Origin: an uncultured Chloroflexia bacterium
GTDB taxonomy: Bacteria > Chloroflexota > Limnocylindria > Limnocylindrales > CSP1-4
Direction of reading: 5' to 3'
Length of the DNA stretch: 64,000 nt
Assembly (NCBI GenBank): GCA_963707215.1
Contig: CAVPPB010000003.1
Location: 1,344,001-1,408,000 of the forward strand
Numbering within the stretch: the stretch's first letter is position 1; every line of letters begins with the position of its first letter. The translations under genes and the position numbers were made by a program. The notes under the pieces are model-generated. The model was given only the letters and a program-made list of their open reading frames with translations, searched no databases and had not been told where the DNA came from. Of this stretch, positions 22,865 to 45,945 are shown in pieces.

Positions 22865-23194
22865 CTACAGCCGCTCGAAGCGCTCGACCGGCATGACGAA
22901 CACCGTCGCCCCGCCGACCTCGACCTCGAGCGGGTAGGGCATGAAGAACTCGCCCGGCTCCATGATCGGCGGCATCGGGTTGACGACCTCGGTCCGCGAC
23001 CGGCAGGTCTCCCGGATGATCCCCATGACCTGCTCGACCTGGTCCTCCTCGACGCCGACCATGATCGTCGCGTTCGTCTGCTTGAGGAACCCACCGGCCG
23101 AGTGGAGCCGGGTCGCGCGCAGCTCCTGCCCCAGGAGCGCGTCCACGAGCGGGCCGGCGTCTTCGTGATGGACGATGGCGACGACGAGCTTCAC
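22865..23194 (-). CDS. darA: Cyclic-di-AMP receptor, PII-like (DarA/PstA/YaaQ family)
   Basis: MKLVVAIV..ED, TRL.S.GGFL...N.T, C..R and VGGATVFV..VE.F motifs. Confidence 0.88.
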   Translation of the reverse strand: MKLVVAIVHHEDAGPLVDALLGQELRATRLHSAGGFLKQTNATIMVGVEEDQVEQVMGIIRETCRSRTEVVNPMPPIMEPGEFFMPYPLEVEVGGATVFVMPVERFERL

Positions 23195-31088: not shown

Positions 31089-31125
31089 CCGGCGCGCTCG
31101 GGATACCGGGGCGCCCGCGCGGTTC

Positions 31126-31158
31126 CGTAACGGCCCCGTACCGGCAGCGTGGCCTGAT
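31126..31158 (+). promoter_or_regulatory. CGTAACG box, second heptamer and weak -10 (copy 1)
   Basis: CGTAACG-gccc-CGTACCG; CCTGAT at +27; ATG at +39. Confidence 0.65.
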
Positions 31159-31164
31159 GGCGCC

Positions 31165-32610
31165 ATGCAACATCGGACACTCGGGCTGCTCATGGCCCCC
31201 GCGCTCCTGGCATTCCTGGCCTCGGCATGTGCCGACACCCCGGCCGAGCCGACGCCGGCACCCAGCGCGCGCGAAGCGCCATCGACCAGCCGTCCGCTCG
31301 TCATCGATGTCGACCTCGATGCGAGCGACCTCCTCGCGGTCGCCATCCTCGTCCGCGACCCGGCCCTCGATGTCCGGGCGCTGACCGTCTCGGCGACGGG
31401 GCTCATCCACTGCGAGCCGGGGCTGCGCGTCGGAAGGGGGCTCCTCGACGCCCTCGGTCGCCCAGACGTCCCGGTCGCCTGCGGCCGCGAGACCGCCGAA
31501 GGCGACGCCCGCCCATTCCCGGACGCATGGAGGGAGGGCGCCGACCGCGCCTGGGGCATGTCGCTTGCCGAGGCGGTGCCGGACTCCGACCCGGGCACGG
31601 CAGCCGAGCTGATCTCCCGGGTCGTCGCCGCCAGCGAGCGGCCGGTCACGGTCTTCGCGGCTGGGCCGCTGACCAACATCGCCGATGCCCTCGCCGCGGA
31701 TCCCGAGCTGGAGCGACGGATCGAGCGACTGCACCTGATGGGCGGGGCCGTCGACGCCCTGGGCAACGTCATCGTGGACGACGTGTCGCAGGCCGATCGG
31801 CTGGAGTGGAACTTCGTGGCCGACCCTGGAGCGGTCGGCGCGGTACTCGCGTCGTCCGTCCCGATCGACCTCGTCCCGCTCGACGCCACCGACGACGTGC
31901 CCGTGCCAGCTGACCTCCTGGCCTGGCTCGAGGAGGACCACACGGCCGCCGGTGCCGATATCGCCTACGAGCTGCTGCTTCGGTTCCCCGGCCGCATCAC
32001 CGACCCTGGCTCGCAGCTCTGGGACGAGCTTGCCGCGCTGACCGTCAGCGGGCCCGGCCTGGTCTCGTGGGAGACCGCGAAGATGACGGCCGTGACCGAG
32101 GGGGCGCTGGCCGGCAGGATCGAGCGCGATCCCGGGGGTCGCGAGATCCGGTTCGCCAGCGCCGCCGACCGTCCCGCGGTCGAGGCCGCCTTGCTCGAAG
32201 CGCTCCACCGCGGGCCGCCGCGGCCCGAACCGTTCGTCCTCGAGGCAGCGGCTCGGCTGATCTGGGACGGCACGACCTGTGCCTGGAAGGGCGATCCTCC
32301 CGGGGCCGCCGGACTTCGCCAGCTGACGCTCGAGAACGACATGGCCACGTTCGGGGGAGCGTTCGTCGTGGCGGTGGAGTCCCCCCATTCCTGGGCCGAG
32401 CTGCTGGACTTCCTCGCCGCATTCGACTTCGAGAACGGCACGGAGCCACCGGCATGGATCGTCCCGCTCGCGACCGACTTCGGAGCCGCGGCCGGTGCCG
32501 AGGTGACGTCGCTGGTCGATCTGCCGTCCGGCACGTCGGGTGCGCTGTGCATCTCGGGGGAGTGGCCGGACATCGAGCTCGTCCCGGGCGAGCCGCTCGA
32601 CCTGCCGTGA
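31165..32610 (+). CDS. Lipoprotein with nucleoside hydrolase (IU-NH)-like domain and extra C-terminal domain
   Basis: Lipobox LASAC; DVDLDASD, GPLTNIA, MGGA..GN, EWNF.ADP, PLDAT and WD motifs. Confidence 0.8.
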   Translation: MQHRTLGLLMAPALLAFLASACADTPAEPTPAPSAREAPSTSRPLVIDVDLDASDLLAVAILVRDPALDVRALTVSATGLIHCEPGLRVGRGLLDALGRPDVPVACGRETAEGDARPFPDAWREGADRAWGMSLAEAVPDSDPGTAAELISRVVAASERPVTVFAAGPLTNIADALAADPELERRIERLHLMGGAVDALGNVIVDDVSQADRLEWNFVADPGAVGAVLASSVPIDLVPLDATDDVPVPADLLAWLEEDHTAAGADIAYELLLRFPGRITDPGSQLWDELAALTVSGPGLVSWETAKMTAVTEGALAGRIERDPGGREIRFASAADRPAVEAALLEALHRGPPRPEPFVLEAAARLIWDGTTCAWKGDPPGAAGLRQLTLENDMATFGGAFVVAVESPHSWAELLDFLAAFDFENGTEPPAWIVPLATDFGAAAGAEVTSLVDLPSGTSGALCISGEWPDIELVPGEPLDLP

Positions 32611-32661
32611 CCGATTCGGTACCGTGATGGCCAGCCGTCCCGCCATGCAGGAAGCCGCCAG

Positions 32662-33861
32662 ATGACGATCACGCCCCGGACCATCCTCCTGGTCGGCCTG
32701 TGGGCGGTCGCGGTCGGCATCGCCGTGGTCGACCTGCTCGTCGGGCTCTTCGCCCGACGCGGCGGCGTGAGCTTCGAGGGCACCGCCTGGACGCCGGCGC
32801 TGCAGGCCGGTTTCGCGACCGTCGGGGTGCTGATCCTGGTCAACCGTCCGAGGAACGTGATCGGCGGTCTCTGCCTGGCGATCGGGCTCGTGCTCGCCGC
32901 CAGCGCCGCCATGGCGGCGTACGCGACGCTCGACGACGTCCGCGGGGGGCCGGCGACCGCGGCGGGCTCGACGGCCGCCATGCTGTCCACGGCGCTCCGG
33001 AGTCTCGCGATCGTGCTGTACGTGCCGCTCCTCGCTCGCTTCCCCTCCGGCCATCTCCTGTCGCGGCGCTGGGCGGTCGCCGACGCACTGGTCCTCTTCT
33101 TCGTCGGCACGGTCGCGGTCGAGACCCTGAGACCGCATCGCGTCGAGCTCGAGTGGGTGCTGGCGTTCGAGAACCCGATCGGGATCCTGGGGCTCCCGGT
33201 GGCAGGGGAGCCCGCCCTGCAGGCGGCCGGGGGCTTCGCGGTGGCCGCGGCCATCCTCGTCACCGGGGCCGCGATCGTGCTCCGCTACCGGCGAGGAGGT
33301 CCGACCGAGCGAGCCCAGATCCGCTGGGTCGTCGCCGCGTATCTCGTGGCCATCGGCGCCATCGGGGCCGCCCTCGTGGCGCCGCGCCCGGTGTCCGACC
33401 TCGCCTGGCTCGTGCTCACGCTCGTGCCCGGGCTGATCCCCATCGCCATCGGGGTCGCCGTGCTGCGATACCGGCTGTACGAGATCGACCGGCTCATCAG
33501 CCGGACGATCGGCTGGGCAATCGTGACGGGAGTGCTGGTCGGCGCCTTCGTCTTCCTGGTGCTCGGGTTGACCTCGGTCGTCGAGCCCCTGTTCGGTGGT
33601 GGCAACACCCTCGCGATCGCCGGCTCCACGTTGGTCGTCGCGGCCCTCTTCAACCCGGTCCGGACGCGGGTCCAGCGAGCGGTCGACCGACGGTTCGACC
33701 GGGGCCGCTATGACGGCGAGCGGCTCCTCGCTGCCTTCACCGAGCGGCTGCGCGACGAGGTCGACCTCACCACGATCTCCGCTGATGTCCTCGCCACCGT
33801 CGATGCCGCGGTCCGACCGAGCTCTGCCGGTCTCTGGCTGCGGGGGAGCGGCCCCCGCTAG
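32662..33861 (+). CDS. Polytopic membrane sensor-like protein, paralog 1 (ends in partial GAF)
   Basis: RPRN.IG, FPSG, RAQIRW and conserved LRYRLYEID...LRDEVDL...GLWLR C-terminus; no kinase domain. Confidence 0.82.
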   Translation: MTITPRTILLVGLWAVAVGIAVVDLLVGLFARRGGVSFEGTAWTPALQAGFATVGVLILVNRPRNVIGGLCLAIGLVLAASAAMAAYATLDDVRGGPATAAGSTAAMLSTALRSLAIVLYVPLLARFPSGHLLSRRWAVADALVLFFVGTVAVETLRPHRVELEWVLAFENPIGILGLPVAGEPALQAAGGFAVAAAILVTGAAIVLRYRRGGPTERAQIRWVVAAYLVAIGAIGAALVAPRPVSDLAWLVLTLVPGLIPIAIGVAVLRYRLYEIDRLISRTIGWAIVTGVLVGAFVFLVLGLTSVVEPLFGGGNTLAIAGSTLVVAALFNPVRTRVQRAVDRRFDRGRYDGERLLAAFTERLRDEVDLTTISADVLATVDAAVRPSSAGLWLRGSGPR

Positions 33862-33883
33862 GCGCCACCCAGCGGCGAGGCCG

Positions 33884-36820
33884 CTACCAGGTCTCGAGCA
33901 TCCAGATCCCCGGCTCCAGCTCGCCGGGCATCCCGCCAACGTCGGCGAACGCGGTGACCGCCTCCCGCAGGTGCTCCAGCGCCTCGTCGTCCCGTCCGGC
34001 CGACCGCAGCATGTCGGCCAGGTTGTTCTCGACGGCCGCCTCGAGGTGGCGCTCGCCGGCGCGTCGTGCCGAGAACGACGCGCTCTCCGCAAGGGTCAAC
34101 GCCAGGTCGATGTCGCCCTGGTCGGCGACGACGAGCGCCAGCGCGTTGGCGGCCGCGATGGAGGCGACCGGATCGGGCAGCGTCGCCGCCGCAGCGAGGC
34201 TCCGCTCCAGGAGGGCCCGCGCGTCCTCGAGATCGCCGCGATCCCGGGCCAGCAGCCCGAGGATCCGATCGGCCTCGGCCTCCGCGGCGATGTCGCCCGT
34301 CGCCAGGGCACGGGCTTCGAGGGCCAGCGCCGCGGCCGACTCCGGCCGCCCGGACCGAGCCGCCGCGACCGCTTGATCCGCGAGGAGGTCGGATCGCCGC
34401 GGCCCCGTCCCCTCGCCGGCCTCGTCGAGAGCGGCCACGGCGGCGGCCAGGTGTCGCCCGGCGCGACCCGGATCGCCGCGTCGGAGATGGACCTGGCCCA
34501 GGCGATGCTCGATGGTGGCCAACCGGTCCGCGGGCGCCGACGCAGCCGCCGTCTCGAGAGTCGAGATGGCCTTCGGATAGTCCCCGGTCCGCATGGCGAC
34601 CTCCCCGATGGCCAGGTGCAGGCCGAGCACGTCTGGGTCGCCCAGGGCAAGGGCCGCCTCGAGATAGGCGAGGGCCTCCCGGTTGGCGAAGACCGCGCGG
34701 GCAAGATCGCCGGCCTCGCGGTAGGCGGCCGCAGCCTCGGGTCCGCGGCCCGCGGCCTGCTCATGGGTCGCGATACGGGCCAGGCGCCCGAGCTGGTCGA
34801 GGTCTCGACCGGCCGGCCCACGGAGCGCCTCGGCCGCCCGGCGATGGAGCAGGCGCCGCCTGACCACGCTCGTCGTCTCGTAGGCGACGTCGCGGAGGCG
34901 GGCATGGACGAAGTCGAACACCGGACCGCCGCTGCCAGTGGACTCGTTGACGATCCCCCGGCGCAGGAGCTCCTCGATGGCCATCACCGTCTCGTCGTCC
35001 GATCGACCACTCACGGCGCGGGCGGCCTCGGCTCCGAACGACCGCCCGATGACGGCCGCGGCCGCGACGACCTGCGTGGCCACGTCGCTGACCCCGGCCA
35101 GGCGTCCCTGGAGCAGTGCGCGGATGCCGGCCGGCATCGCGCCAGCGGGACGATCCGGCACGGCCAGGGCCTCGACGACGTAGAGCGGCAGCCCTTCGGC
35201 CTCGTCGACGAGGGCATCGAGGATGGCAGGGGAGGGCATCGGCCGGCCGGTCGTCACGATCGCATCGACGAGTTCGCGGACGTGGGCCTGCGCCAGCCGA
35301 TCGAGCCGGACGACGGCACCGGGCATCGCGTCCGCGGTCGCCACGAGTGGCTGGGCTCGCTCGTCGAGGTCCTCGCGGCGCCACGAGAGCAGCAGGGCGA
35401 TCGGGTGCGTCTCAAGTCGGCGGGCGAGGTAGGCGAGCGCCTCGAGCGTCGAGTCGTCGGCCCACTGGAGATCGTCGAGGCGGACGAGGACGGGCCGGGC
35501 CGGGCCGTCCGGGCCGTCCGGGCTGGCGATCGCACCGAGGCCCGCGGCGATCGCCTCGAGCAGTCGGAGCCGAGCTGCCGGACCCGATGCGGGACCGGGA
35601 CCGGTCGCCGGACCGGTCCGCTCGAGCTCCGGCACGAGCGTGGCGAGGAAGCCTCGATCCCGCTCGGAAAGCCGGGCAAGAGCGTCGGGACCATCAGCCA
35701 GGGCGAGCACCGACCGGAGCAGCCCGGCGATCGGGGCGAGCGCGATGCCCGCCTCGCCGGCATAGCAGCGCGCCGCGACCACGGGGTGATCCATCGTCGC
35801 CGCCCGCTCGGTGACGGCATCTGCGAGCCGCGTCTTGCCGATCCCCGCCTCGCCCTCGATGACCGCGAGCCGGCCGCTGCCTTCCCCGAGGGCGAGCGCG
35901 GCCGACACCCGCTCCAGCTCGTCAGCACGACCGATGAGCGGCGCGATCGAGGGGCGGCCCGGAGCCGCCGCGGCTGGCGCGGACGGCGATGTGGCGGCCT
36001 CGCCCGCGGCGGATCCTGGAGGCGACGCCGTCGCCAGCTCCCCCGCCAGGATCGCCTCGTACAGCTCCGTCGTCTCGGGAAGCGGTCCGACGCCCAGCTC
36101 ACGGTCAAGGATCGCGGCCGCGTCGCGGTACTGCCGGACCGCCGCGGCCGTCTCGCCGGAGCGTGCGTAGGCCTCCATGAGGGCTCGGTGGGCCGGCTCG
36201 TGCAGCGGGTCGAGCCCGAACCACCGCCGACCAGCCACGATCGCGCCGTCCCAGCCGCCGGCCGCGAGGCGCTCCCGAACGAGCCGCTCGAGCGCCCCGG
36301 CGAGCTCACGCTGATGGGCCTCGCGCTCGATCTCGATCCACTCATCCCACGCCTCGCTGTCGCGGAGCGAGAAGCCCTCCATGAGCCCCCCACGGTCGAG
36401 GGCCAGGGCAGCTTCGAGCGCCGCCTGGCAGTCCCCGCAGGCACGATCCGGCTCGTGGCCGTGACCCCGGGCCTGGGTCACCGCGTCGCGGAACCGGGCG
36501 ACGTCGAGCTCGATCGATCCTGGGTCGAGGGCGACCGACGTCCGGTCGATGGTCAGGCCGGTCCCATCGAGGGCCGAGTTGAGCACCGAGAGCGTCCGGC
36601 GCAGCGCGCCTCGGGCCTCCTGGTCGCCCGAATCCGGCCAGAGGAGCGCGCCCAGGGACTCGCGGGACGCGGGCCGGCCGGTCAGGGCCAGGTAGGCCAG
36701 CAGGGCGATGGCCTTCCGCGTGTCGACGGCCAGCGGTGCACCGCCGACGCGGATGTCGACCGGGCCCAGCAGGCGGATCGCGATCGTGCGCGTCGGGGGG
36801 GCCGGCGACCTCGGTGGCAT
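33884..36820 (-). CDS. SARP-type transcriptional regulator (wHTH, BTAD, STAND NTPase, TPR)
   Basis: IRLLG..KAIALLAYLA..RE.L..LLWP, DPLHE.AHR.LM, Walker A GEAGIGKT, LDDLQWAD, GLPLY, F.H and helical repeats; ATG 36820 with TATCGT 7 nt upstream. Confidence 0.9.
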   Translation of the reverse strand: MPPRSPAPPTRTIAIRLLGPVDIRVGGAPLAVDTRKAIALLAYLALTGRPASRESLGALLWPDSGDQEARGALRRTLSVLNSALDGTGLTIDRTSVALDPGSIELDVARFRDAVTQARGHGHEPDRACGDCQAALEAALALDRGGLMEGFSLRDSEAWDEWIEIEREAHQRELAGALERLVRERLAAGGWDGAIVAGRRWFGLDPLHEPAHRALMEAYARSGETAAAVRQYRDAAAILDRELGVGPLPETTELYEAILAGELATASPPGSAAGEAATSPSAPAAAAPGRPSIAPLIGRADELERVSAALALGEGSGRLAVIEGEAGIGKTRLADAVTERAATMDHPVVAARCYAGEAGIALAPIAGLLRSVLALADGPDALARLSERDRGFLATLVPELERTGPATGPGPASGPAARLRLLEAIAAGLGAIASPDGPDGPARPVLVRLDDLQWADDSTLEALAYLARRLETHPIALLLSWRREDLDERAQPLVATADAMPGAVVRLDRLAQAHVRELVDAIVTTGRPMPSPAILDALVDEAEGLPLYVVEALAVPDRPAGAMPAGIRALLQGRLAGVSDVATQVVAAAAVIGRSFGAEAARAVSGRSDDETVMAIEELLRRGIVNESTGSGGPVFDFVHARLRDVAYETTSVVRRRLLHRRAAEALRGPAGRDLDQLGRLARIATHEQAAGRGPEAAAAYREAGDLARAVFANREALAYLEAALALGDPDVLGLHLAIGEVAMRTGDYPKAISTLETAAASAPADRLATIEHRLGQVHLRRGDPGRAGRHLAAAVAALDEAGEGTGPRRSDLLADQAVAAARSGRPESAAALALEARALATGDIAAEAEADRILGLLARDRGDLEDARALLERSLAAAATLPDPVASIAAANALALVVADQGDIDLALTLAESASFSARRAGERHLEAAVENNLADMLRSAGRDDEALEHLREAVTAFADVGGMPGELEPGIWMLETW

Positions 36821-36852
36821 CCACGCAACGATACCGCCCTTGCCGTGCGGTT

Positions 36853-36885
36853 CGTAACGTTTCCCGGACCCCCGTCCGCCAGGGT
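36853..36885 (+). promoter_or_regulatory. CGTAACG box (copy 2), in the region divergent from the SARP regulator
   Basis: CGTAACG-tttc-CCGGACC; CAGGGT at +27. Confidence 0.7.
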
Positions 36886-37021
36886 GGCTGTGCCTGGCCG
36901 GGGGGCCATGGTGGGGCCCGGCGAACGGAGGTGTCGTGGGGTCCGCAAGCACACGAGTCGACCGGAGGGTTGCCGTACCGTCGTACGGTGGGGGGGCCGT
37001 ACCGAGCCCGGCGTGCGTCCC

Positions 37022-38323
37022 ATGAGCCGACCCAGCGACCCGCACCCTGCGCCGCCTCGACACACCAGCCCAGCACCTGTCGCTGCTCCGAGCATCCCGA
37101 CGCGACGACGCCCGACGACCTGCATCGCGGTCGCGCTCCTCGCCCTGGCGCTCGGCATGATCGCCTTCCTGGCGGCCTCCTCGCTCGTGCTGCCGGGCGC
37201 GGATCGACTCCCGGGCCGACCCGAGGGGATCGTGGACGTCCTGTGGATCGCGATCACGCTGGGAGCGTTCGTGTCGCTGCCGACGATGGGGGCGATCCTT
37301 GCCATCCTCCGGCCACGCAACCCGATCGGCTGGCTCCTGCTCGGCAGCGGCGTCGCGATCATCCTGGGTACGTCCGGGCCGGAGTACGTCGACCGGAGCC
37401 TTCTCCTCGGGGCCGAGCTGCCCGGCGACCGCATCGTGGACTGGCTCTCGGCACGGTCCGAAGGCCTCGGGTTCATGCTCGTGGCCGTCTGGATCCCGTT
37501 GGTCTTCCCGGACGGGCGGCTGCCCGGCCCCAGGTGGCGACTCGTGGCCATCGTTGCGGCGCTCGCGATGGTGACGAGCGTCGTTGCCGGCGCCCTGACG
37601 GTGCACGGGGACGGCCAGTGGGACCCCGCATTCCCCAACCCGCTGGCGGCCGAAGGGTGGCTGGCTGACCTCGCCGTCGTCCTGGTGGATGTCGGGAACC
37701 TGGTCCTCCTGGTCTGTATCCCGCTTGCAGCGGCATCGGTGATCGTCCGCTTCCGGCGGTCCCGCGGCGCCGAGCGGGAACAGATGAAGTGGTTCCTGGC
37801 GGCGGCGTCGGTCCTCGCGGGCGCATTCCTCCTGATGGCCGGGGTCCAGCAGGACTGGACCTACATCCTCACCCTGGCCAGCTTCTCGCTCCTCCCCATC
37901 GCCATCGGCATCGCCGTCCTGCGGTACCGCCTGTACGAGATCGACCGGCTCATCAGCAAGTCCATCGGCTGGGCCATCGTGACGGGGTTGTTGGTCGGGG
38001 CCTTCGCCCTCCTGGTCCTCGGACTCCAGACCGTGCTCGAGCCCCTCACCGGGGGCAACACCCTGGCGATCGCCGGCTCGACCCTCGTGGTGGCGGCCCT
38101 GTTCCAGCCCCTCCGGACCCGGGTCCAGCGGGCCGTCGACCGGCGGTTCGACCGGAGCCGCTACGACGGGGAGCGGCTGCTCGCCGCCTACTCCGAGCGC
38201 CTGCGCGACGAAGTGGACCTCTCGACGATCAGTGCCGACGTCCTCGCCACCGTCGATGCCGCGGTCCGGCCGAGCGCTGCCGGCCTCTGGCTGCGGGAGC
38301 GACCCGGGGGCGGGCGGCCCTGA
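37022..38323 (+). CDS. Polytopic membrane sensor-like protein, paralog 2
   Basis: RPRNPIGW, FPDGRLP..RWR, NP, REQMKW and the same conserved C-terminus. Confidence 0.85.
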   Translation: MSRPSDPHPAPPRHTSPAPVAAPSIPTRRRPTTCIAVALLALALGMIAFLAASSLVLPGADRLPGRPEGIVDVLWIAITLGAFVSLPTMGAILAILRPRNPIGWLLLGSGVAIILGTSGPEYVDRSLLLGAELPGDRIVDWLSARSEGLGFMLVAVWIPLVFPDGRLPGPRWRLVAIVAALAMVTSVVAGALTVHGDGQWDPAFPNPLAAEGWLADLAVVLVDVGNLVLLVCIPLAAASVIVRFRRSRGAEREQMKWFLAAASVLAGAFLLMAGVQQDWTYILTLASFSLLPIAIGIAVLRYRLYEIDRLISKSIGWAIVTGLLVGAFALLVLGLQTVLEPLTGGNTLAIAGSTLVVAALFQPLRTRVQRAVDRRFDRSRYDGERLLAAYSERLRDEVDLSTISADVLATVDAAVRPSAAGLWLRERPGGGRP

Positions 38324-38387
38324 GCTCCGCTCGTCTCGACGGGATCCATGCAGGCATCGTCACGGTCTGCGAGACCCGCCGCGAACT

Positions 38388-38420
38388 CGTAACGCTTCCC
38401 CGACGCTCCCGGACCACGAT
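38388..38420 (+). promoter_or_regulatory. CGTAACG box (copy 3)
   Basis: CGTAACG-cttc-CCCGACG; CACGAT at +27. Confidence 0.7.
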
Positions 38421-38471
38421 GTCGGCAGCCGGCCGCGGGGGGCGGCCGGCATCAGCACCGAGGAGCAGGCC

Positions 38472-38942
38472 ATGAGCTGGTCGATGGAGCACATCCGCGA
38501 GGCACCCGTGGCGCCAGGCGACGTGTTCGCCGCCTACACGGACCCGTCCACCTGGAGCGCCTGGGGGCACAACACGCGCTCAGCTCGGCTCAAGGGTCCG
38601 TTCCGCGAAGGAGCCGTCGTCCGCGTCGAGGCCGGCTACCGCCGCACCTGGCCGGTCCTCGTCCGGATGGTCGTGCCGGGGTGCACGGTCGTGTGCGAGG
38701 TCCGCCCGCCCGGGGTCACGATCGTCTCGACCTACGACGTGCGGCCGACAGAGGAGGGCGCCCGCCTTCGGCACGTCATCACCATCTCCGGCCGGCTCGA
38801 GCTCGCCTACCGACCACTGCGACCGCTGTACACGCGGCTGCTCGCGAAGGAGACGAGGCGCCTCGCCGAACACGTCACCGGGACCGGTGCCCGCGCCGAG
38901 GAGACGCGGGAGACGGCCGCGGACGGCCCACGACTGTCGTAA
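38472..38942 (+). CDS. SRPBCC/START family protein
   Basis: VFAAYTD..TW..W and GPF..G pattern; GAGGAG RBS. Confidence 0.75.
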   Translation: MSWSMEHIREAPVAPGDVFAAYTDPSTWSAWGHNTRSARLKGPFREGAVVRVEAGYRRTWPVLVRMVVPGCTVVCEVRPPGVTIVSTYDVRPTEEGARLRHVITISGRLELAYRPLRPLYTRLLAKETRRLAEHVTGTGARAEETRETAADGPRLS

Positions 38943-38970
38943 CGTTCCGCGAACACTCCACGCCGAGGAT
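38938..38970 (+). promoter_or_regulatory. CGTAACG box (copy 4)
   Basis: CGTAACG-ttcc-GCGAACA; GAGGAT at +27. Confidence 0.62.
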
Positions 38971-39072
38971 GCGTCCCGTGAACGGTCGATATCGAAGCCG
39001 TGCTGCAGCGCCGGCCAAGGCGTCCACGTACCTTCCGTTGACGGGTGGCCCGACCATCGGGTGCCTGGTCGC

Positions 39073-39156
39073 ATGAGCGCCGACGTCCTCGCGACCGTCG
39101 ATACCGCGGCCCGACCGACCGCTCCCGGCCCCTGGCTGCTGGGGTCCGAGCCATGA
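39073..39156 (+). pseudogene. Remnant of the conserved sensor C-terminus (27 aa)
   Basis: MSADVLATVDTAARPTAPGPWL matches ISADVLATVDAAVRPTAAGIWL; stop overlaps the next ATG (ATGA). Confidence 0.75.
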
Positions 39157-40373
39157 CGGCTGATCGGGGTCGTCTCCGCGCCGTCTCCGCGATCCTCATC
39201 ATCGCCTCGCTCGCGGGGTCGCTGGCGTTCACTATCGTCCTCGACGCGGTCGTGCTCGCCGGGTCGACGTCCTTCGACACGCCCATCCTCTCCCTGTTGC
39301 TCACGGCGATCGCGCTGGCGTTCTCGATCGTCGGGGCCGCGGTCGAGTGGCGGCGGCCCGGTCACGCAATCGGCCGCCTCCTGCTGCTCTCGGGACCGTT
39401 GTTCGCGTTCCTGGCGATGGGCTGGACGTTGGGAGGCTCTCTCGCTGCCCCCATCGACCCTGCCGTACATGCCCTGTTCGACTGGAGCGTGACCGTGCTC
39501 TCCTACCCGGGGATGGCAGTGATCGCAGGCTGGCTTCCGCTCCTGTTCCCCTCAGGAACGCTCCCAGGTCCGCGCTGGCGAGCTCCGGCGGCCGCGCTGG
39601 TCTTCGTGTCGTCGGTGAGCCTCCTCGCGCTTGCGACGCGGCCCGGGCCCCTAGTCGAGGATGGCCGAGCAAACCCGCTCGGCGTCGAAGCCTGGCCTCC
39701 CGCCCTCCAGCTGCTCGTCGACTCGCTGCTGCTTCAGCTCGTGCTGTTGTTCGTGCTCGCGGTCGTCGGACTCGCCGTCCGCTACCGGCGCGGGGACGAG
39801 GTCGCGCGCCACCAGATCCGCTGGCTGCTCGCGGCCGTGGGAACCGTGGCCGTGGGGTTCGTCGGTGCCCTCGTCGAGGGCCTCGTCCGCACGGACGAGG
39901 GGGTCTTCGTATCGATCATCGTGGCGTTCGTTGGCGTCCTGTTCATGCCCATCGCCATCGGCATCGCCGTCCTGCGGTACCGGCTGTACGAGATCGACCG
40001 GCTCATCAGCCGGACGATCGGCTGGGCGATCGTGACCGGGCTGCTGGTCGGGGCGTTCGCCCTCCTCGTGCTCGGGCTCCAGGCCGTGGTCGAGCCGATC
40101 ACCGGCGGGAACACGCTGGCGATCGCCGGGTCCACCCTCGTCGTGGCCGCCCTCTTCAACCCGGTTCGGACGAGGGTCCAGCGGGCCGTCGATCGACGGT
40201 TCGACCGCTCCCGGTACGACGGGGAGCGGCTCCTCGCCGCCTTCGGGGAGCGCCTTCGCGACGAGGTCGACCTGACCGCCATCAGGGCCGATGTCCTCGC
40301 CACCGTCGATGCCGCGGTCCGACCAAGCGCTGCCGGCCTCTGGCTGCGGGAGCGACCGGGGGGCCGGGCGTGA
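39153..40373 (+). CDS. Polytopic membrane sensor-like protein, paralog 3
   Basis: RRPGHAIG, FPSG.LPGPRWR, NPLG, RHQIRW and the conserved C-terminus. Confidence 0.85.
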   Translation: MTADRGRLRAVSAILIIASLAGSLAFTIVLDAVVLAGSTSFDTPILSLLLTAIALAFSIVGAAVEWRRPGHAIGRLLLLSGPLFAFLAMGWTLGGSLAAPIDPAVHALFDWSVTVLSYPGMAVIAGWLPLLFPSGTLPGPRWRAPAAALVFVSSVSLLALATRPGPLVEDGRANPLGVEAWPPALQLLVDSLLLQLVLLFVLAVVGLAVRYRRGDEVARHQIRWLLAAVGTVAVGFVGALVEGLVRTDEGVFVSIIVAFVGVLFMPIAIGIAVLRYRLYEIDRLISRTIGWAIVTGLLVGAFALLVLGLQAVVEPITGGNTLAIAGSTLVVAALFNPVRTRVQRAVDRRFDRSRYDGERLLAAFGERLRDEVDLTAIRADVLATVDAAVRPSAAGLWLRERPGGRA

Positions 40374-41554
40374 GGGTGCCGGGCGTGAACGACCGCGCGG
40401 CACTCCGGATCGCGTCGACCGCGATCGTGCTGCTGCTGCTGGCCGGCACGGCCATCCTTGCCGTCATCTGGCCGCCCGTCCGGCAGCCCACCTGGGGGTT
40501 CACCGGCTTCTCTGGCCTGCTGGCAGGAGCCGTGGGCCTCATGGGAGCGGTCATCGTGTACCGTCGGCCGGGCAACCGCGTGGGTTGGGTCCTGCTCCTC
40601 GTCGGCCTCATGAGCGCGATCCAGTTCGTCGTGGACCTGACCCCACTCCTGGTCATCCACCTGGGCGGCGCGGGCACGCCGGCCGAGACCTGGACGAGCT
40701 GGCTCCCGAACGCCATCTGGGTCCCGTCGGTCACCCTGATCGGCTACCTGTTGCTGATCTACCCTGACGGGCGCCCGCCTGACGGACGCTGGTCGGCCCT
40801 CGGTCCGCTGCTGCTCGTGGTCGCGATCCTGACGCTGGTGGCGATCCTGGTGACCCCCGGCGACCTGCGGAACTACCCGGGCGTCGCCAACCCGACGGGC
40901 CTGCCCGGTCTCCCCGGGGCCCTCGTGGCCATCGTCGACCCCCTGTACCTGGGGACGCTCGTGGCCGCAGCGCTGTCCCTGGTCGTCCGCTGGCGCCAGG
41001 CCCCGCCGGTCGTCCGGGCCCAGCTGAAGTGGCTCGCCCTTGCCGGGGTCCCGTTCGCGATCGCCACCAGCCTGTCGGTCGTCTCCCGGGAGGCCCAACT
41101 CATGGCGATCCTCTCCGGCGGGCTGATGCCGGTAGCCATCGCCATGGCGATCCTGCGCGACCGCCTGTACGAGATCGACCGCATCATCAGCCGGTCGATC
41201 GGCTGGGCGATCGTCACCGGGTTGCTCATCGCGACGTTCGCCGTGTTGATCCTTGGCCTCCAGGCGGTGCTCGAGCCCCTGACCGGAGGCAACACCCTGG
41301 CGATCGCCGCCTCGACCCTGATCGTCGCTGCCCTCTTCGACCCGGTCCGGACCCGGGTCCAGCGGGCGGTCGACCGCCGCTTCGACCGTTCCCGGTACGA
41401 CGGCGAGCGCCTCCTGGCCGCCTTCGGGGAGCGGCTGCGCGACGAGGTGGACCTCACGACGATCTCCGCCGATGTCCTCGCCACCGTCGATGCCGCGGTC
41501 CGACCGACCGCTGCCGGCATCTGGCTGCGGGAGCGATCGGGGGGCGGAGGGTGA
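40370..41554 (+). CDS. Polytopic membrane sensor-like protein, paralog 4
   Basis: RRPGNRVGW, YPDGRP..RW, NP.G, RAQLKW and the conserved C-terminus; GTGA overlap (alternative start 40385). Confidence 0.85.
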   Translation: MRVPGVNDRAALRIASTAIVLLLLAGTAILAVIWPPVRQPTWGFTGFSGLLAGAVGLMGAVIVYRRPGNRVGWVLLLVGLMSAIQFVVDLTPLLVIHLGGAGTPAETWTSWLPNAIWVPSVTLIGYLLLIYPDGRPPDGRWSALGPLLLVVAILTLVAILVTPGDLRNYPGVANPTGLPGLPGALVAIVDPLYLGTLVAAALSLVVRWRQAPPVVRAQLKWLALAGVPFAIATSLSVVSREAQLMAILSGGLMPVAIAMAILRDRLYEIDRIISRSIGWAIVTGLLIATFAVLILGLQAVLEPLTGGNTLAIAASTLIVAALFDPVRTRVQRAVDRRFDRSRYDGERLLAAFGERLRDEVDLTTISADVLATVDAAVRPTAAGIWLRERSGGGG

Positions 41555-42818
41555 GGGGGCAGATGCGGCAGCGGACCGTCAGGGACAGCCGAGCGGCCCG
41601 CGGTTCGTCGACTGCCGCCGCGGAGCCATCGATCGGCTGGCCCGGACGACTGCTGCTGATCGCTCTGCTGGCTGGCGGCACGTTCATCGGTGTCGCCTGG
41701 GCATTCGACCCGTTCGCGCTCCTCTTCTGGGCATCGTACGCCTCGACCGCAGCCCTCCTCATCGTTCGGCGACCCCGGAACGTCATCGGCTGGCTGTTGC
41801 TCGCGATCGCGTTCGGGTTCATCGGAACCACGTCGCGACCCGAGATCGACCTGGCCGCGCTGGAGCAGGGCGTCGGGGCGATCGGCGACGAGCTATGGAT
41901 GTGGGTCGGAAGCTGGGTCGGCGCCGCGACCTTCATCGGCTTCTTCACGTTGATGCTCGTGTTCCCGAGCGGTCGGCTTCCTGGCGGGCGCTGGCGCCGA
42001 CCGTCGATGGCGCTGATCACGGTCGGGAGCCTCGTCGTCGTCCTGGCCGCCTTCGCGCCGACCGTCACGTTCAGTCCCGATGGCGGCAGCGCCGAGATCG
42101 TCGCTCCCAACCCGGTCGCCATCCTTCCCGACCTGCCGATCTGGTCGATCGTCCCGAACAGTGGTGCCGTGACGATCGTTCCGATCCTGGTCCTGCTGCC
42201 GATCGGCGTCGTCACGTTGGCCATGCGCTACCGACGGTCAAGCGGCGCCTTGAAGCTCCAGCTGCGCTGGCTGGTCGCGGCCGTTGCCTTCATGGTCGGG
42301 GCGGTCGTGGCAGGCCTGACGATGCTGGCCATCGCCGGCGAGGACGCATGGTACGCATGGGTCCCGGCGATCATCGCCTACCCGACCGTACCCATCGCCA
42401 TCGGCATCGCGGTCCTCCGGTACCGGCTGTACGAGATCGACCGGCTCATCAGCCGGACGATCGGCTGGGCGATCGTGACGGGACTGCTGGTGGGAGCCTT
42501 CGCCCTCCTGGTGCTGGGGCTCCAGGCCGTCGTCGAGCCGCTCACCGGCGGCAACACCCTGGCCATCGCCGGCTCGACCCTCGTCGTGGCGGCCCTCTTC
42601 AACCCGGTCCGCACCCGGGTCCAGCGGGCGGTCGACCGCCGCTTCGACCGTTCCCGGTACGACGGCGAGCGCCTCCTGGCCGCCTTCGGGGAGCGGCTGC
42701 GCGACGAGGTGGACCTCACGACGATCTCCGCCGACGTCCTCGCCACCGTCGATGCCGCGGTCCGACCGACCGCTGCCGGCATCTGGCTGCGGGAGCGATC
42801 GGGGGGCGGAGGGTGAGG
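41341..42818 (+). repeat. 216-bp near-identical direct repeat (41341-41556 and 42603-42818)
   Basis: By-eye alignment shows 2 mismatches; related copies lie at the 3' ends of paralogs 1-3. Confidence 0.9.
41551..42816 (+). CDS. Polytopic membrane sensor-like protein, paralog 5
   Basis: RRPRNVIGW, FPSGRLP..RWR, NP, QLRW and the conserved C-terminus; GTGA overlap (alternative ATG 41563). Confidence 0.85.
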   Translation: MRGQMRQRTVRDSRAARGSSTAAAEPSIGWPGRLLLIALLAGGTFIGVAWAFDPFALLFWASYASTAALLIVRRPRNVIGWLLLAIAFGFIGTTSRPEIDLAALEQGVGAIGDELWMWVGSWVGAATFIGFFTLMLVFPSGRLPGGRWRRPSMALITVGSLVVVLAAFAPTVTFSPDGGSAEIVAPNPVAILPDLPIWSIVPNSGAVTIVPILVLLPIGVVTLAMRYRRSSGALKLQLRWLVAAVAFMVGAVVAGLTMLAIAGEDAWYAWVPAIIAYPTVPIAIGIAVLRYRLYEIDRLISRTIGWAIVTGLLVGAFALLVLGLQAVVEPLTGGNTLAIAGSTLVVAALFNPVRTRVQRAVDRRFDRSRYDGERLLAAFGERLRDEVDLTTISADVLATVDAAVRPTAAGIWLRERSGGGG

Positions 42819-42824
42819 ACGCTT

Positions 42825-42857
42825 CGTAACGGGTCCCGGACGGTCGACTGGTGGACT
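42825..42857 (+). promoter_or_regulatory. CGTAACG box (copy 5)
   Basis: CGTAACG-ggtc-CCGGACG; TGGACT at +27. Confidence 0.7.
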
Positions 42858-42900
42858 GCGTCCAGGCAGACCGCCGGAGGGACCACCACAGGAGGCCACC

Positions 42901-43314
42901 ATGCGCCGCGTCCTCGCTCGCTCGATCCTCATCGGGTCGATCGCCGCAACCACCCTGGCAGGGACCGCCCTGGGCCACGAGTGCTTCATCTACAGCCGGT
43001 CGGACACCGGCGACCTCGCCGCGGGCAGCCACTCGAAGGTCTGGCTGACCGTCGGCTCCACGGCCGACATCTTCCTGCTCGTCGAGGAGGAGCTCCAGCT
43101 GCCGCCGCTCTCACCCTCGCAGCTCGATTGGGCGGTCGACGCCGGGAAGGCGGCGGGCCTGCCGAACCAGTTCACGATCTTCATCGGCAAGAAGACGATC
43201 GCCGAGGGCACCCCGGCGATGGAGAAGCATGCCGCCGACGGCAGGGGCGTCGATCACGCCTTCGATTGGCTGCCGGTCGTCGTCGACATCTACTTCCAGG
43301 CGCTCGCGCACTGA
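42901..43314 (+). CDS. Small secreted hypothetical protein
   Basis: Sec-type signal peptide ending ALG/HECF; AGGAGG RBS. Confidence 0.75.
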   Translation: MRRVLARSILIGSIAATTLAGTALGHECFIYSRSDTGDLAAGSHSKVWLTVGSTADIFLLVEEELQLPPLSPSQLDWAVDAGKAAGLPNQFTIFIGKKTIAEGTPAMEKHAADGRGVDHAFDWLPVVVDIYFQALAH

Positions 43315-43495
43315 CCGAGCCTGACCCCCGGGCCCGGGCGGGCCGGCTGCCCAGCCGAGCGTCCCGTCCGTCCGGGCCCACGCCACCTCCAGCGTCCGCC
43401 GGATCGTCCTTCCGGCGGACGCGTCGCGTCCACGCGGGCCCGATGTCGACCACCACCACCGACCGCGTGACGGATCGTCCCGATGACCCTTGGAC

Positions 43496-43528
43496 CGTAA
43501 CGCTTCCCGGACGCACAGGGAGGAACCT
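43496..43528 (+). promoter_or_regulatory. CGTAACG box (copy 6)
   Basis: CGTAACG-cttc-CCGGACG; GAACCT at +27; ATG at +39. Confidence 0.72.
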
Positions 43529-43534
43529 CCGGCC

Positions 43535-45247
43535 ATGACGTTCATCCAGTCGCTGCGCCGCACGGTCGGACTCGGCGGTCGATCCGCCCCGGAGCCCGAC
43601 GCCTCCAGCGAGCCCGACGAGGGAGCCTCGGCGGCCGAGGCCCAGGTCGATGGCGTCCCGGCGGAGCCGGAGGCACCGGCGGGGTCCGCCGGGATCGGCC
43701 CGGTCGAGATCGCCCCCGACGACCCGCTGCTCGCGCTGCTCCAGTCCACCGACGGCGTGATCGACGTCGACCGGGTCACGATCGACTCGCCCGCCCTGGA
43801 CGCTCTCCGCGCGCAGGGCATCGCCGTCATCGTCCCGCTCGTCGCCCAGGGCGAGCTCGTCGGGGCGCTGTACCTGGGTGAGCGCCTGTCGGAGCAGGAC
43901 TACTCGACCGACGACCGTCGACTGCTCGCCTCGCTCGCCGCCCGCACAGCCCCGGCGATCCGCGTCGCCCAGCTGGTCCGCGAGCAGGCCACCGAGGTCG
44001 CCGCGCGCGAGCGCATCGAGCAGGAGCTCCAGGTCGCGACCCTCATCCAGCAGCAGTTCCTGCCCCGGAGCCTGCCGGAGCTCCCCGACTGGCAGGTCGC
44101 GGCGTACTACGGCCCGGCGCGCGCCGTCGGCGGCGACTTCTACGACTTCATCGAGCTGCCCGACGGGCGCATCGGCGTCGTCGTCGGCGACGTGACCGAC
44201 AAGGGCGTCCCGGCCGCCCTGGTCATGGCTCGGACCCACTCGGTCCTGCGGGCCGAGGCGCCGCGCCTCATCGAGCCGGGAGCGGTGCTCGCGCGGGCGA
44301 ACGACATCCTCTGCGAGGAGATGCCGTCGAACATGTTCGTCACCTGCCTCTACGGCGTCCTCGAGCCGACCACGGGTCGCTTCGTCTTCGCCAACGCCGG
44401 GCACAACCTTCCGTACGTCCGGTCCGCGGGCACGGTCGACGAGCTGCGGGCGACCGGGATGCCGCTCGGCCTGCTGCCGGGGATGGCGTACGAGGAGGCC
44501 GAGGGAACGATCGAGGGCGGCCAGGGCCTCCTCCTCTACTCGGACGGGTTCGTGGAGGCCCACTCGCCGACCGGCGAGATGTACGGCTTCCCGCGGCTCC
44601 GGGACGCCTACGGCGCCTTCGACGGCGACACTGGCAGCGAGCTGGTGGATCGGCTGCTCGACGACCTCCACGGCTTCACCGGCGGCGGCTGGGAGCAGGA
44701 GGACGACCTGACGCTGGTCGCCCTGCGGCGATCGCGCGGCACGGGCTTCGAGGCCCTGGCCGACGAGACCGATGCGGCCGACGCGGCCGACCCTGTGGCC
44801 ACCGCGGCGAGCGTCCGCGCCCTCCTCGACCTGGAGGTCCCCGGCGCCCTCGGCAACGAGCGGATCGCCATGGACCGGGTCGCCGAGGCGGTCGCTCCCC
44901 TCGGGCTTCCCGCGGACCGCCTCGAGCGACTCAAGACGGCGGTCTCCGAGGCGGCGATGAACGCCATCGAGCACGGCAGCCAGGGCCGGCCGGAGGTCCC
45001 TATCCGGGTCCACGTGTCGGCGACCGACGCTGCGCTCCGGGTCCGGGTCGCCGACATGGGCCTGGGCGGCGACATCCCCCTGGGCTCGGCTGAGGTCCCG
45101 GACCTGGAGGCGAAGCTGGCCGGCGAGCAGAAGCCGCGCGGCTGGGGCCTCTTCCTGATCGAAGCGATGGTCGACGAGATGGCCGTCGAGCAGACCGACG
45201 AGGGCCAGGCGGTCGTCCTGACCCTCCACCTGAAGGGAGCGTCCTGA
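43535..45247 (+). CDS. Partial GAF plus SpoIIE/RsbU PP2C phosphatase plus RsbW-like HATPase fusion
   Basis: VPLVAQGELVGALYLG GAF strands; VGGDFYD, GDVTDKG, NAGH, YSDG, DDLT; SEAAMNAIEHG, DMG and GWGLFLI. Confidence 0.92.
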   Translation: MTFIQSLRRTVGLGGRSAPEPDASSEPDEGASAAEAQVDGVPAEPEAPAGSAGIGPVEIAPDDPLLALLQSTDGVIDVDRVTIDSPALDALRAQGIAVIVPLVAQGELVGALYLGERLSEQDYSTDDRRLLASLAARTAPAIRVAQLVREQATEVAARERIEQELQVATLIQQQFLPRSLPELPDWQVAAYYGPARAVGGDFYDFIELPDGRIGVVVGDVTDKGVPAALVMARTHSVLRAEAPRLIEPGAVLARANDILCEEMPSNMFVTCLYGVLEPTTGRFVFANAGHNLPYVRSAGTVDELRATGMPLGLLPGMAYEEAEGTIEGGQGLLLYSDGFVEAHSPTGEMYGFPRLRDAYGAFDGDTGSELVDRLLDDLHGFTGGGWEQEDDLTLVALRRSRGTGFEALADETDAADAADPVATAASVRALLDLEVPGALGNERIAMDRVAEAVAPLGLPADRLERLKTAVSEAAMNAIEHGSQGRPEVPIRVHVSATDAALRVRVADMGLGGDIPLGSAEVPDLEAKLAGEQKPRGWGLFLIEAMVDEMAVEQTDEGQAVVLTLHLKGAS

Positions 45248-45594
45248 TGGAGGGCGTCATGACGGCACTGACGAGCCGGGTCGAAGCCGGCCCCGAGACG
45301 GGACGGATCGTCCTCGCGGGACGGCTCGACCGGGAGGGCGACGCTGTCCTGGCCTCGGCCTACGCAGAGGCGACGGCGGCCGGCGCCGCGGAGCTGGAGA
45401 TCGACTTCGGCGACGTCGCCTACATCAACAGCACGGGCATCGCGCTCGTCGTCCGGCTGCTGGCCGAGGCCCGCCGCGACGGGCGCCCGGTCCGCGCCAC
45501 GGGCCTGTCCGACCACTACCGGGAGATCTTCCGGATCACCCGGCTGTCCGACTTCATGACGATCGTGGACGACGAGCCAGGAGGTGAGCGATGA
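45247..45594 (+). CDS. STAS anti-sigma factor antagonist 1
   Basis: G.LD, DF..V.YINSTG phospho-Ser motif and IF.ITRL. Confidence 0.9.
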   Translation: MEGVMTALTSRVEAGPETGRIVLAGRLDREGDAVLASAYAEATAAGAAELEIDFGDVAYINSTGIALVVRLLAEARRDGRPVRATGLSDHYREIFRITRLSDFMTIVDDEPGGER

Positions 45595-45935
45595 CGGCGA
45601 CGACGGTGCAGGTCGAGTCGCGGGGCGACACGGCGATCCTCCGCATCGGCGGCGATGTGACCGCCGCCAGCGACGGAGCGTTCAGCGAAGCGTACGCGAC
45701 CGCGACCGACGGCGGAGCCCGGGCCCTGGTCCTCGACTTCTCCGGCATGGAGTACATGAACAGCGGCGGGATCGGGCTGCTCGTGACGATGCTCGTCCGG
45801 ACCCAGCGGGCCGGCCAGCGACTCCTCGCCGCCGGTCTGTCCGAGCACTACTGCCAGATCCTCTCGCTCACCCGCCTCGACGAGGCGATCGCGATCCACG
45901 ACACGACCGACGCCGCGCTGGCGGCGACGGCGTAG
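45591..45935 (+). CDS. STAS anti-sigma factor antagonist 2
   Basis: LDFSGMEYMNSGG motif and LTRL. Confidence 0.9.
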   Translation: MTATTVQVESRGDTAILRIGGDVTAASDGAFSEAYATATDGGARALVLDFSGMEYMNSGGIGLLVTMLVRTQRAGQRLLAAGLSEHYCQILSLTRLDEAIAIHDTTDAALAATA

Positions 45936-45945
45936 GAGGCCAGCC

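Follow-up and report, generated by a model that had tools for sequence, protein, structure and literature searches.

A predicted SARP-type regulon with a 22-bp direct-repeat box in an uncultured Chloroflexota bacterium

CGTAACG sites and genes of the cluster

We analyzed a 64,000-nucleotide stretch of DNA from an uncultured Chloroflexia bacterium (positions 1,344,001 to 1,408,000 of contig CAVPPB010000003.1, assembly GCA_963707215.1; hereafter the window), in which a repeated promoter motif with the core CGTAACG lies among the genes around a SARP-type regulator gene. The assembly searched comprises 3,257,968 bp in 5 contigs at 72% G+C. The closest named records are Candidatus Limnocylindrales (Chloroflexota) metagenome-assembled genomes (MAGs), one of them 88% identical in gene I of the cluster, and we therefore place the host in the Chloroflexota and not among the actinomycetes despite its 72% G+C.

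Exact matches to CGTAACG upstream of genes were found at 31126, 36853, 38388, 38938, 42825 and 43496, all on the + strand, as listed in the initial annotation of this DNA. With the first letter of CGTAACG counted as 0, the second heptamers reported at +11 and the hexamers reported at +27 were identical when reread from the sequence. An ATG stands exactly at +39 in the two cases claimed (31165 and 43535), and the related heptamers placed 29-30 bp upstream of three copies are present (CGCAACG at 36824, CGTCACG at 38358 and CGTGACG at 43466). The box sites are real, and their observation is confirmed.

Genes were called by frame analysis combined with Pfam and NCBIfam scans. An arginase gene lies before box 1, which is followed by gene A (31165-32610, +), whose product resembles nucleoside hydrolases (Pfam IU_nuc_hydro 5e-38) and has an N-terminus of the signal or lipoprotein type, and by gene B (32662-33861, +), a sensor-like membrane paralog. 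The SARP gene (33884-36820, -) encodes 978 amino acids with BTAD, AAA_16 and TPR domains. Divergent from it is the sensor-like gene C (36908-38323, +), followed by the SRPBCC gene D (38472-38942, +; Pfam Polyketide_cyc2), which has a Shine-Dalgarno leader, and the sensor-like operon E-F-G (39153 or 39045 to 42816, +), in which the starts of F and G overlap the preceding stop codons. Gene H (42901-43314, +) encodes a small protein with a signal peptide. Downstream of box 6 lies the operon I-J-K-L (43535-46782, +): gene I (43535-45247, +) encodes a GAF-PP2C(SpoIIE)-RsbW-like kinase protein (Pfam SpoIIE 2.7e-52, HATPase_c_2 1.7e-22), genes J and K (45247-45594 and 45591-45935, +) encode STAS proteins recognized by Pfam, and gene L (45946-46782, +) encodes a conserved protein of 278 amino acids with only a weak DUF1990 hint (E 0.027). 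The NCBIfam anti-sigma F/B models match proteins of this operon below their cut-offs. Scans of the cluster detected no sigma factor or response-regulator domain, and Pfam scans revealed no biosynthetic genes near it.

The proteins of genes B, C, E, F and G are mutual paralogs. They are multi-pass membrane proteins without a Pfam family or a kinase domain, and they weakly resemble the N-terminal membrane parts of histidine kinases. When sensor E was compared with a protein-cluster atlas, only unnamed clusters were matched; the nearest named one was HisKA_7TM at 0.84, a lead only. The last 390 nucleotides of the paralogs in the window are 80-91% identical and the first 600 are 56-61% identical. 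This pattern suggests either a shared cytoplasmic partner or gene conversion. In related loci (L020-L095), the arrays of sensor-like paralogs comprise 1 to 8 copies.

Frequency of the sites in the genome

The initial annotation had described a local regulon, to be doubted if the motif occurred at background frequency. The whole genome contains 44 copies of CGTAACG, counting both strands. Taking this frequency as the base, six copies inside 12.4 kb correspond to a lambda of 0.167 and a Poisson P(≥6) of 2.6e-8. Shuffling the window gave an expectation of 1.97 copies, and 1 out of 100 shuffles reached the seven copies that the window contains in total. The shuffle test is weak by itself; the genome count is decisive. 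The seventh exact copy (50105), which the initial annotation does not list, is antisense within a minus-strand glyoxalase gene and scores only 6.8 bits in the matrix described below, and for both reasons we judged it to be a chance occurrence.

We then ran a weight matrix over the genome, trained on 159 sites from 79 other genomes with the same-genus locus left out. The five best scores in the genome belong to window sites 4, 2, 6, 3 and 5 (36.4 down to 19.8 bits), and the next best match scores 16.9 bits. Individually, box 2 scores 34.9, box 3 28.1, box 4 36.4 (the best in the genome), box 5 19.8 and box 6 28.2 bits. Both the genome count and this independent matrix show enrichment, and the five best matches all fall in the cluster, in agreement with a local regulon. 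The degenerate seventh copy that had been suggested at 32606 scored -11.9 bits and was rejected. No box therefore precedes gene B, which is probably co-transcribed with gene A.

Anatomy of the individual boxes

Box 1 is a variant, cCGTAACG-gccc-CGTACCG, which together with its -10 hexamer CCTGAT (31153-31158) spans 31125-31158 (+). The ATG of gene A at 31165 lies at +39, and the transcript is predicted to be leaderless. We considered a 10-bp repeat spacing for this site and dropped it because the 11-bp register gives CGTACCG, with one mismatch to CGTAACG; in the same 11-bp register, the orthologous second repeats read CGTAGCG or CGTGACG. The variant CGTAACS-N4-CGTRnCG is kept before gene A orthologs in 8 of the 10 loci that have upstream sequence, and in several of these ortholog loci the start codon is again at +39.

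Box 2, tCGTAACG-tttc-CCGGACC with the -10 hexamer CAGGGT (36880-36885), occupies 36852-36885 (+) in the region between the SARP gene and gene C. Its predicted start is at about 36892. The upstream heptamer CGCAACG (36824-36834, no strand assigned) lies 29 bp before it, and related loci also carry a box in the divergent region between the SARP and sensor genes. Box 3 (38358-38420, + with its upstream heptamer) precedes gene D and consists of CGTCACG at 38358, tCGTAACG-cttc-CCCGACG from 38387 and the -10 hexamer CACGAT (38415-38420). The E-F-G operon lies downstream of box 4, tCGTAACG-ttcc-GCGAACA with the -10 hexamer GAGGAT (38965-38970), at 38937-38970 (+). Box 5, tCGTAACG-ggtc-CCGGACG with the -10 hexamer TGGACT (42852-42857), lies at 42824-42857 (+) before gene H. 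Box 6 (43466-43528, + with its upstream heptamer) comprises CGTGACG at 43466, cCGTAACG-cttc-CCGGACG from 43495 and the -10 hexamer GAACCT (43523-43528), and the ATG of gene I at 43535 is at +39.

The TAA stop codon of gene D (38940-38942) falls within the CGTAACG heptamer of box 4 (38938-38944). In the lineage-specific targets D and H, a 5' leader of about 37-45 nucleotides (38427-38471 and 42864-42900) contains a clear Shine-Dalgarno sequence, whereas A, I and, in most relatives, the first sensor gene, which are the core targets, look leaderless.

Conservation of the box, -10 element and start codon

The comparison covered about 90 related loci, drawn from Limnocylindria, from other Chloroflexota and from MAGs with an Actinomycetota label. 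Orthologs of gene I (59-89% identity) were found in 9 of 40 relatives. In all 10 loci, that of the window included, CGTAACG precedes the ATG at a nearly fixed distance; two paralogous gene I loci have no CGTAACG upstream. Six 20-kb regions from other genera share a common layout, in which a minus-strand SARP gene is followed by a box, two to six sensor paralogs, a second box and the PP2C-STAS-STAS-L operon.

A wider scan of contigs yielded 80 further loci, and in 76 of them CGTAAC occurs just upstream of the gene I ortholog. Of the remaining four, three have a copy 550-675 nucleotides upstream of the aligned part; in the fourth (L090), both a nearby box and a nearby SARP gene are missing. Orthologs of J and K are present in 76 of the 80 loci and orthologs of L in 72.

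These 80 loci contain 247 plus-strand copies of CGTAACG. We chose 160 of them by the presence of AC at +15/+16 and read conservation at positions outside this selection. All sites have a pyrimidine at -1 (100%). Most have T at +8 (95%), G at +13 (83%) and G at +17 (90%) and, further downstream and at constant spacing, A at +28 (94%), A at +31 (69%) and T at +32 (88%). The last three bases correspond to the key positions in a -10 element of the housekeeping type. The resulting consensus is YCGTAACG-wTn-yCCGGACG-N9-nAnnAT, with a 22-bp box YCGTAACG-N3-yCCGGACG-N3 that divides into the 11-bp direct-repeat units YCGTAACGwtn and yCCGGACGnnn. In low-GC loci labelled Ktedonobacteria or Anaerolineae, TACAAT, TATAAT or TAGAAT stands at exactly +27 to +32. 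The 11-bp distance between heptamers held in this comparison, and the conserved A and T together with the TATAAT-like hexamers of low-GC relatives bear out the proposal that the hexamer at +27 is the -10 element. A loose pattern (CGTAACGNNNNNNGNAC) run over 121 genomes served only to spot paired sites, as it matched 95 genomes and its reversed control gave a similar result.

An ATG begins at +39 to +43 in 119 of the 160 sites, most often at +39 (38 sites). This points to many box-driven mRNAs being leaderless and starting 6-10 nucleotides after the -10 element. A transcript start at +39 would place the box at -40 to -19 and the -10 element at -12 to -7. We also considered CGTAAC as a SigB/SigF-type -10 element with a start at about +12 and rejected this, since the two most conserved bases of the hexamer (A at +28, T at +32) and the position of the start codons (+39 to +43) put the -10 element farther downstream.

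An upstream CGTNACG (at most one mismatch, at -33 to -27) accompanies 87 of the 160 sites, compared with 12 of 160 in a control window, and on this basis we consider the upstream heptamer part of the architecture even where there is no divergent gene. The low-GC loci L078, L086, L089, L094, L096, L097 and L098 have three repeats (CGTAACG-N5-CGTAACG-N4-GGAGACG or similar) at spacings of 12 and then 11 bp, so that the third CGTAACG of these relatives sits 12 bp upstream. Two of them (L086 and L094) have no sensor paralogs, and their SARP gene is immediately upstream in the same orientation.

Each site is, from its sequence and the comparison, a predicted activator-dependent promoter without a -35 element. 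The prediction follows from the lack of a recognizable -35 hexamer (+4 to +9 reads ACGWTn) and from the weak -10 element in high-GC genomes. The initial annotation had named as a competitor an alternative sigma factor that reads GTAAC, and the most explicit form of this idea is that CGTAAC is the -35 element of a BldN/ShbA-like extracytoplasmic function (ECF) sigma factor, perhaps controlled by the PP2C/RsbW-like/STAS module. Published Streptomyces promoters of this kind do share the hexamer (given as CGTAAC-N16-CGTTGA for BldN in PMC2375139 and CGTAAC-N16-CGATGA for ShbA in PMC12019637), and the cluster contains genes for two STAS proteins and for an RsbW-like kinase domain of the anti-sigma type. 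At N16 after CGTAAC (+22 to +27), however, there is no CGT and no conservation at all in the 160 sites. The conserved -10 element is instead of the housekeeping type and lies 21 bp past CGTAAC, a greater distance than a -35/-10 pair allows. Heptamers also stand in tandem, as many as three at a time, in keeping with a protein that binds repeats. The genome has 18 Sigma70_r2 matches; none falls in the window and, by comparison of coordinates, none is within about 9 kb of a CGTAACG. The sigma factor explanation did not hold up against these findings, and we regard it as extremely improbable.

The divergent regulator is related to AfsR

The SARP protein consists of a winged helix-turn-helix (wHTH) and BTAD part (residues 1 to ~265), a NOD/AAA_16 part with the Walker A motif GEAGIGKT, and TPR repeats (Pfam BTAD 1.7e-24, AAA_16 4e-20, TPR_12 6.5e-21). 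In a phmmer search against the Protein Data Bank (PDB), residues 6-265 matched EmbR (2fez, 1.4e-7) and AfsR (8hvr, 1.8e-6). We modelled the SARP domain with AlphaFold2 using 48 orthologs and obtained a predicted local distance difference test (pLDDT) value of 94.6. In the model, residues 13-25 and 89-105 form beta strands and residues 35-83 form helices; an all-helical part follows. The top six Foldseek matches were AfsR (8k60 and 8hvr, transcription initiation complex) and EmbR, with E values of 3e-12 to 9e-10 and template modelling (TM) scores of 0.70-0.80. Matches after these were generic TPR proteins with E > 4e-3. An OmpR-type winged helix followed by an all-helical BTAD domain, a central NOD ATPase and C-terminal TPR repeats is the composition of the large SARPs.

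Residues R74-R75-T76-L77-S78 align to the recognition helix of AfsR and are invariant in all 48 orthologs, which are 42-64% identical overall. We propose this RRTLS segment (74-78) as the putative recognition helix, and its invariance is consistent with the invariant CGTAACG heptamer. Against the AfsR equivalog model (NCBIfam NF053617), the protein scores 69.3 bits and does not reach the cut-off of 1430. We take the regulator to be a relative of AfsR and not an ortholog. The BTAD domain, the EmbR and AfsR matches and the predicted fold bear out the earlier description of the divergent regulator as SARP-type.

The geometry of the sites resembles that of known SARP operators. According to PMC10936776, the afs box consists of two 11-bp direct repeats that cover 22 bp from -40 to -19, with contacts to the first 8 bp of each repeat only. 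For SARP targets in general, the paper gives a repeat spacing of 11 or 22 bp and a distance of 8 bp between the 3' repeat and the -10 element. The box found here agrees with this geometry base for base. The heptameric repeats of SARP sites are described as overlapping the -35 region, with three repeats at some sites (PMC10972967). In our consensus, the heptamers are at 0 and +11, and the -10 element lies 9 bp after the second heptamer, or 8 bp if the register is moved by one position.

AfsR and the afs box of afsS in Streptomyces coelicolor, seen by cryo-electron microscopy (8hvr, 8k60), are a close parallel. The regulator has the same order of wHTH-BTAD, NOD and TPR parts, the modelled SARP domain superposes at TM 0.77-0.80, and a 22-bp two-repeat box at -40 to -19 likewise replaces a usable -35 element beside a weak -10 element. 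However, the AfsR repeat is given as CGTT(T/C)ATCG (PMC10972967), compared with CGTAACG/CCGGACG here, and the SARP domains are only 28% identical. The system in the window also differs in its Chloroflexota host, in signalling and membrane targets instead of afsS or antibiotic clusters, in the extra heptamer 29-30 bp upstream and in its many predicted leaderless transcripts. EmbR of Mycobacterium tuberculosis (2fez, 2ff4) has the same SARP-domain fold (E 1.4e-7, TMq 0.70-0.71) but has an FHA domain at its C-terminus and is under the control of a Ser/Thr kinase, whereas the protein here carries NOD and TPR parts.

The small SARPs ActII-ORF4, DnrI, RedD and PapR2 and the SARP-LAL protein PimR are likewise described as cluster-situated activators that use heptameric repeats with 4-nucleotide spacers overlapping the -35 region (PMC10972967). 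Some of their sites have three repeats, as do the sites of low-GC relatives here, and the regulon in the window is also strictly local. They differ in controlling secondary-metabolite clusters in actinomycetes. SARPs have been described as antibiotic-cluster activators and said to occur "exclusively" in actinomycetes (PMC7040171). The classical association with an actinomycete host and a secondary-metabolite cluster does not apply here, as the host is a member of the Chloroflexota and the targets are signalling and membrane genes. Judging from the listings returned by our literature search, we met no account of SARPs in Chloroflexota.

Box and regulator occur together across genomes

A SARP match lies within the 10-kb flanks of 64 of the 80 loci. 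Of the 16 loci without one, 9 offer less than 4 kb of sequence on the upstream side, in 5 a sensor array takes up the flank, and 2 (L064 and L090) are unexplained. Among 41 relatives, a SARP ortholog was found in the same 10 genomes as a gene I ortholog and in none of the other 31.

We searched 121 genomes of the family with a strict pattern (CGTAACGNTNNNNGRACG) and with the SARP domain at a cut-off of E ≤ 1e-30. The pattern gave 92 matches in 43 genomes and its reversed control 12 matches. The SARP domain was detected in 36 of the 121 genomes; 34 of these 36 contain the pattern, compared with 9 of the 85 genomes without the domain. All 24 genomes with at least two pattern matches have a SARP. 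These counts include one unpublished genome (G097), without which they become 33 of 35 and 23 of 23. In more than 20 genomes that list both on one contig, the box is about 30 to 160 bp from the aligned N-terminus of the SARP.

These data bear on whether the box is instead bound by an OmpR/PhoB/GlnR-type response regulator encoded elsewhere, with the SARP gene merely co-regulated. The two types of binding are not separable by geometry alone, as OmpR-type proteins also bind 11-bp repeats that overlap the -35 region. The core GTAAC-n6-CGGAC/CGAAC resembles GlnR boxes such as t/gTAAC-n6-Gc/aAAC of M. smegmatis, as tabulated in PMC10704036 (Table 2), and overlapping sites shared by AfsR and PhoP have been reported at afsS (PMC10972967). 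The pho boxes of PhoB/PhoP and the actinomycete GlnR boxes also have 11-bp repeat units at or near -35. However, these are receiver-domain proteins with global regulons, whereas here a single cluster is served by a BTAD-NOD-TPR regulator without a receiver. Scans of the cluster returned no response-regulator or receiver-domain gene. A global regulator would have sites elsewhere, but the best match outside the cluster scores 16.9 bits compared with 19.8-36.4 bits inside it. Moreover, across genomes the occurrence of the box follows that of the SARP gene, and the box adjoins the start codon of that gene. We consider control by a distant response regulator unlikely.

The promoter of the SARP gene

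We found TAnCGT on the strand of the SARP gene in 49 of 58 divergent regions (TACCGT in 42), and its offset from the main box is identical in 45 of these 49. The start codon follows 6-9 nucleotides after TAnCGT in 46 of the 47 cases tallied, on which basis the SARP mRNA is probably leaderless too. In the window, TATCGT (36828-36833, -) ends 7 nucleotides before the ATG of the SARP gene at 36820. The -10 element and start of the SARP gene overlap the upstream heptamer, which on the plus strand reads CGTAACGGTAC. This overlap with the third heptamer, 29-30 bp upstream, suggests that the SARP may regulate its own gene.

The same overlap allows a reading in which the SARP binds the box but mainly represses or has a dual role, or in which the box chiefly autoregulates the SARP gene. 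The upstream heptamer covers the -10 element and start of a leaderless SARP promoter that recurs in most divergent regions, and a box at -40 to -19 could equally block RNA polymerase. Nevertheless, the target promoters lack a -35 hexamer and have weak -10 elements in high-GC genomes, a signature of activator dependence; the position of the box is identical to that of the activating afs box; and boxes are present at promoters without a divergent gene (sites 1, 3, 4, 5 and 6). A mainly repressing or autoregulatory role is in our view very unlikely.

Proposed regulation of the cluster

Apart from the copy at 32606, the parts of the initially proposed model that are open to computation were all supported. 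We think it likely that the cluster is a SARP-type regulon, in which the neighbouring AfsR-like SARP activates the box promoters through predicted binding. From linkage, geometry and fold, the divergent SARP (33884-36820) would bind the two repeats as a side-by-side dimer. In place of the -35 contact, it would make contacts of its own with sigma region 4 and with the core of RNA polymerase, as AfsR does at the afsS promoter, and the NOD and TPR parts would probably gate its activity, as in other STAND proteins. The predicted targets are the units A-B, C, E-F-G and H, that is, the kinase-less seven-transmembrane (7TM) sensor-like proteins and accessory proteins. Gene D and the GAF-PP2C-RsbW-like kinase/STAS/STAS/L operon would be further targets.

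Several observations weigh against this reading. Site 1 (31126) scored 6.9 bits in the matrix, which is ungapped, and this is no better than the chance copy at 50105. In the common form of the box, the second repeat matches the first at only 4 of 7 positions, and the third heptamer, 29-30 bp upstream, is not a whole number of helical turns away. Pfam Trans_reg_C was not detected in residues 1-120 of the SARP even at E ≤ 1; the wHTH was called from the fold model and from the sequence matches in the PDB. As for linkage, L064 has boxes and no SARP match within 10 kb, and two SARP genomes (G075 and G082) do not contain the strict pattern. Nine genomes without a SARP carry one pattern match each, to be read beside the 12 matches of the reversed control, and the contrast of 34/36 with 9/85 comes from related genomes, which are non-independent samples. 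In another genome (G022:C1:3429155-3432088, locus L015), the SARP gene reads in four pieces in different frames with the boxes intact, and is either a pseudogene or affected by long-read indel errors. Finally, our search for RNA runs found none carrying the stretch; three soil metatranscriptome runs share 0.01-0.02 of the sampled words.

If the SARP does activate these promoters, the analysis predicts a new consensus, a new phylum and a new target class for a SARP-type activator-operator system. It provides a complete predicted SARP regulon in uncultured Chloroflexota, with the regulator, a 22-bp operator, the -10 element and likely starts, and the activator-promoter pair is short and sharply defined enough to be directly testable in vitro. 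The geometry, kept across very distant genomes, suggests that the mechanism known as 'sigma adaptation' is older and more general than antibiotic control.

More speculatively, the box regulon could be the transcriptional arm of an undescribed signalling system, in which the PP2C/RsbW-like/double-STAS module and the sensors act on the STAND-type SARP and not on a sigma factor. Expandable arrays of one to eight kinase-less 7TM sensor-like proteins would then share a near-identical cytoplasmic tail, and a partner-switching cascade would control a sigma-adapting activator. The minimal unit in Ktedonobacteria-like loci consists of the SARP, the box and the PP2C-STAS-STAS operon. Such a system, if true, would be distributed widely, in soil Chloroflexota as well as in some Actinomycetota-labelled MAGs. 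We hold this extension to be rather doubtful.

Other features of the window

Downstream of the cluster, an open reading frame (ORF) of 145 amino acids (47828-48265) matches just the C-terminal part of CrtO/CrtI-type desaturases and has orthologs in most related loci; it is either a truncated gene or a gene with a mis-set start. The Arg/Ser/Pro-rich ORF at 47187-47606 (-) may be spurious. A second STAND protein, with a double zinc ribbon, an adenylate/guanylate cyclase domain, AAA_16 and TPR repeats, is encoded at 50224-53802 (-) without a box. Upstream of the cluster, a gene for a cyclic-di-AMP receptor (22865-23194, -; CdAMP_rec, 9.5e-39) adjoins genes for a MaoC-like dehydratase and an MFS transporter.

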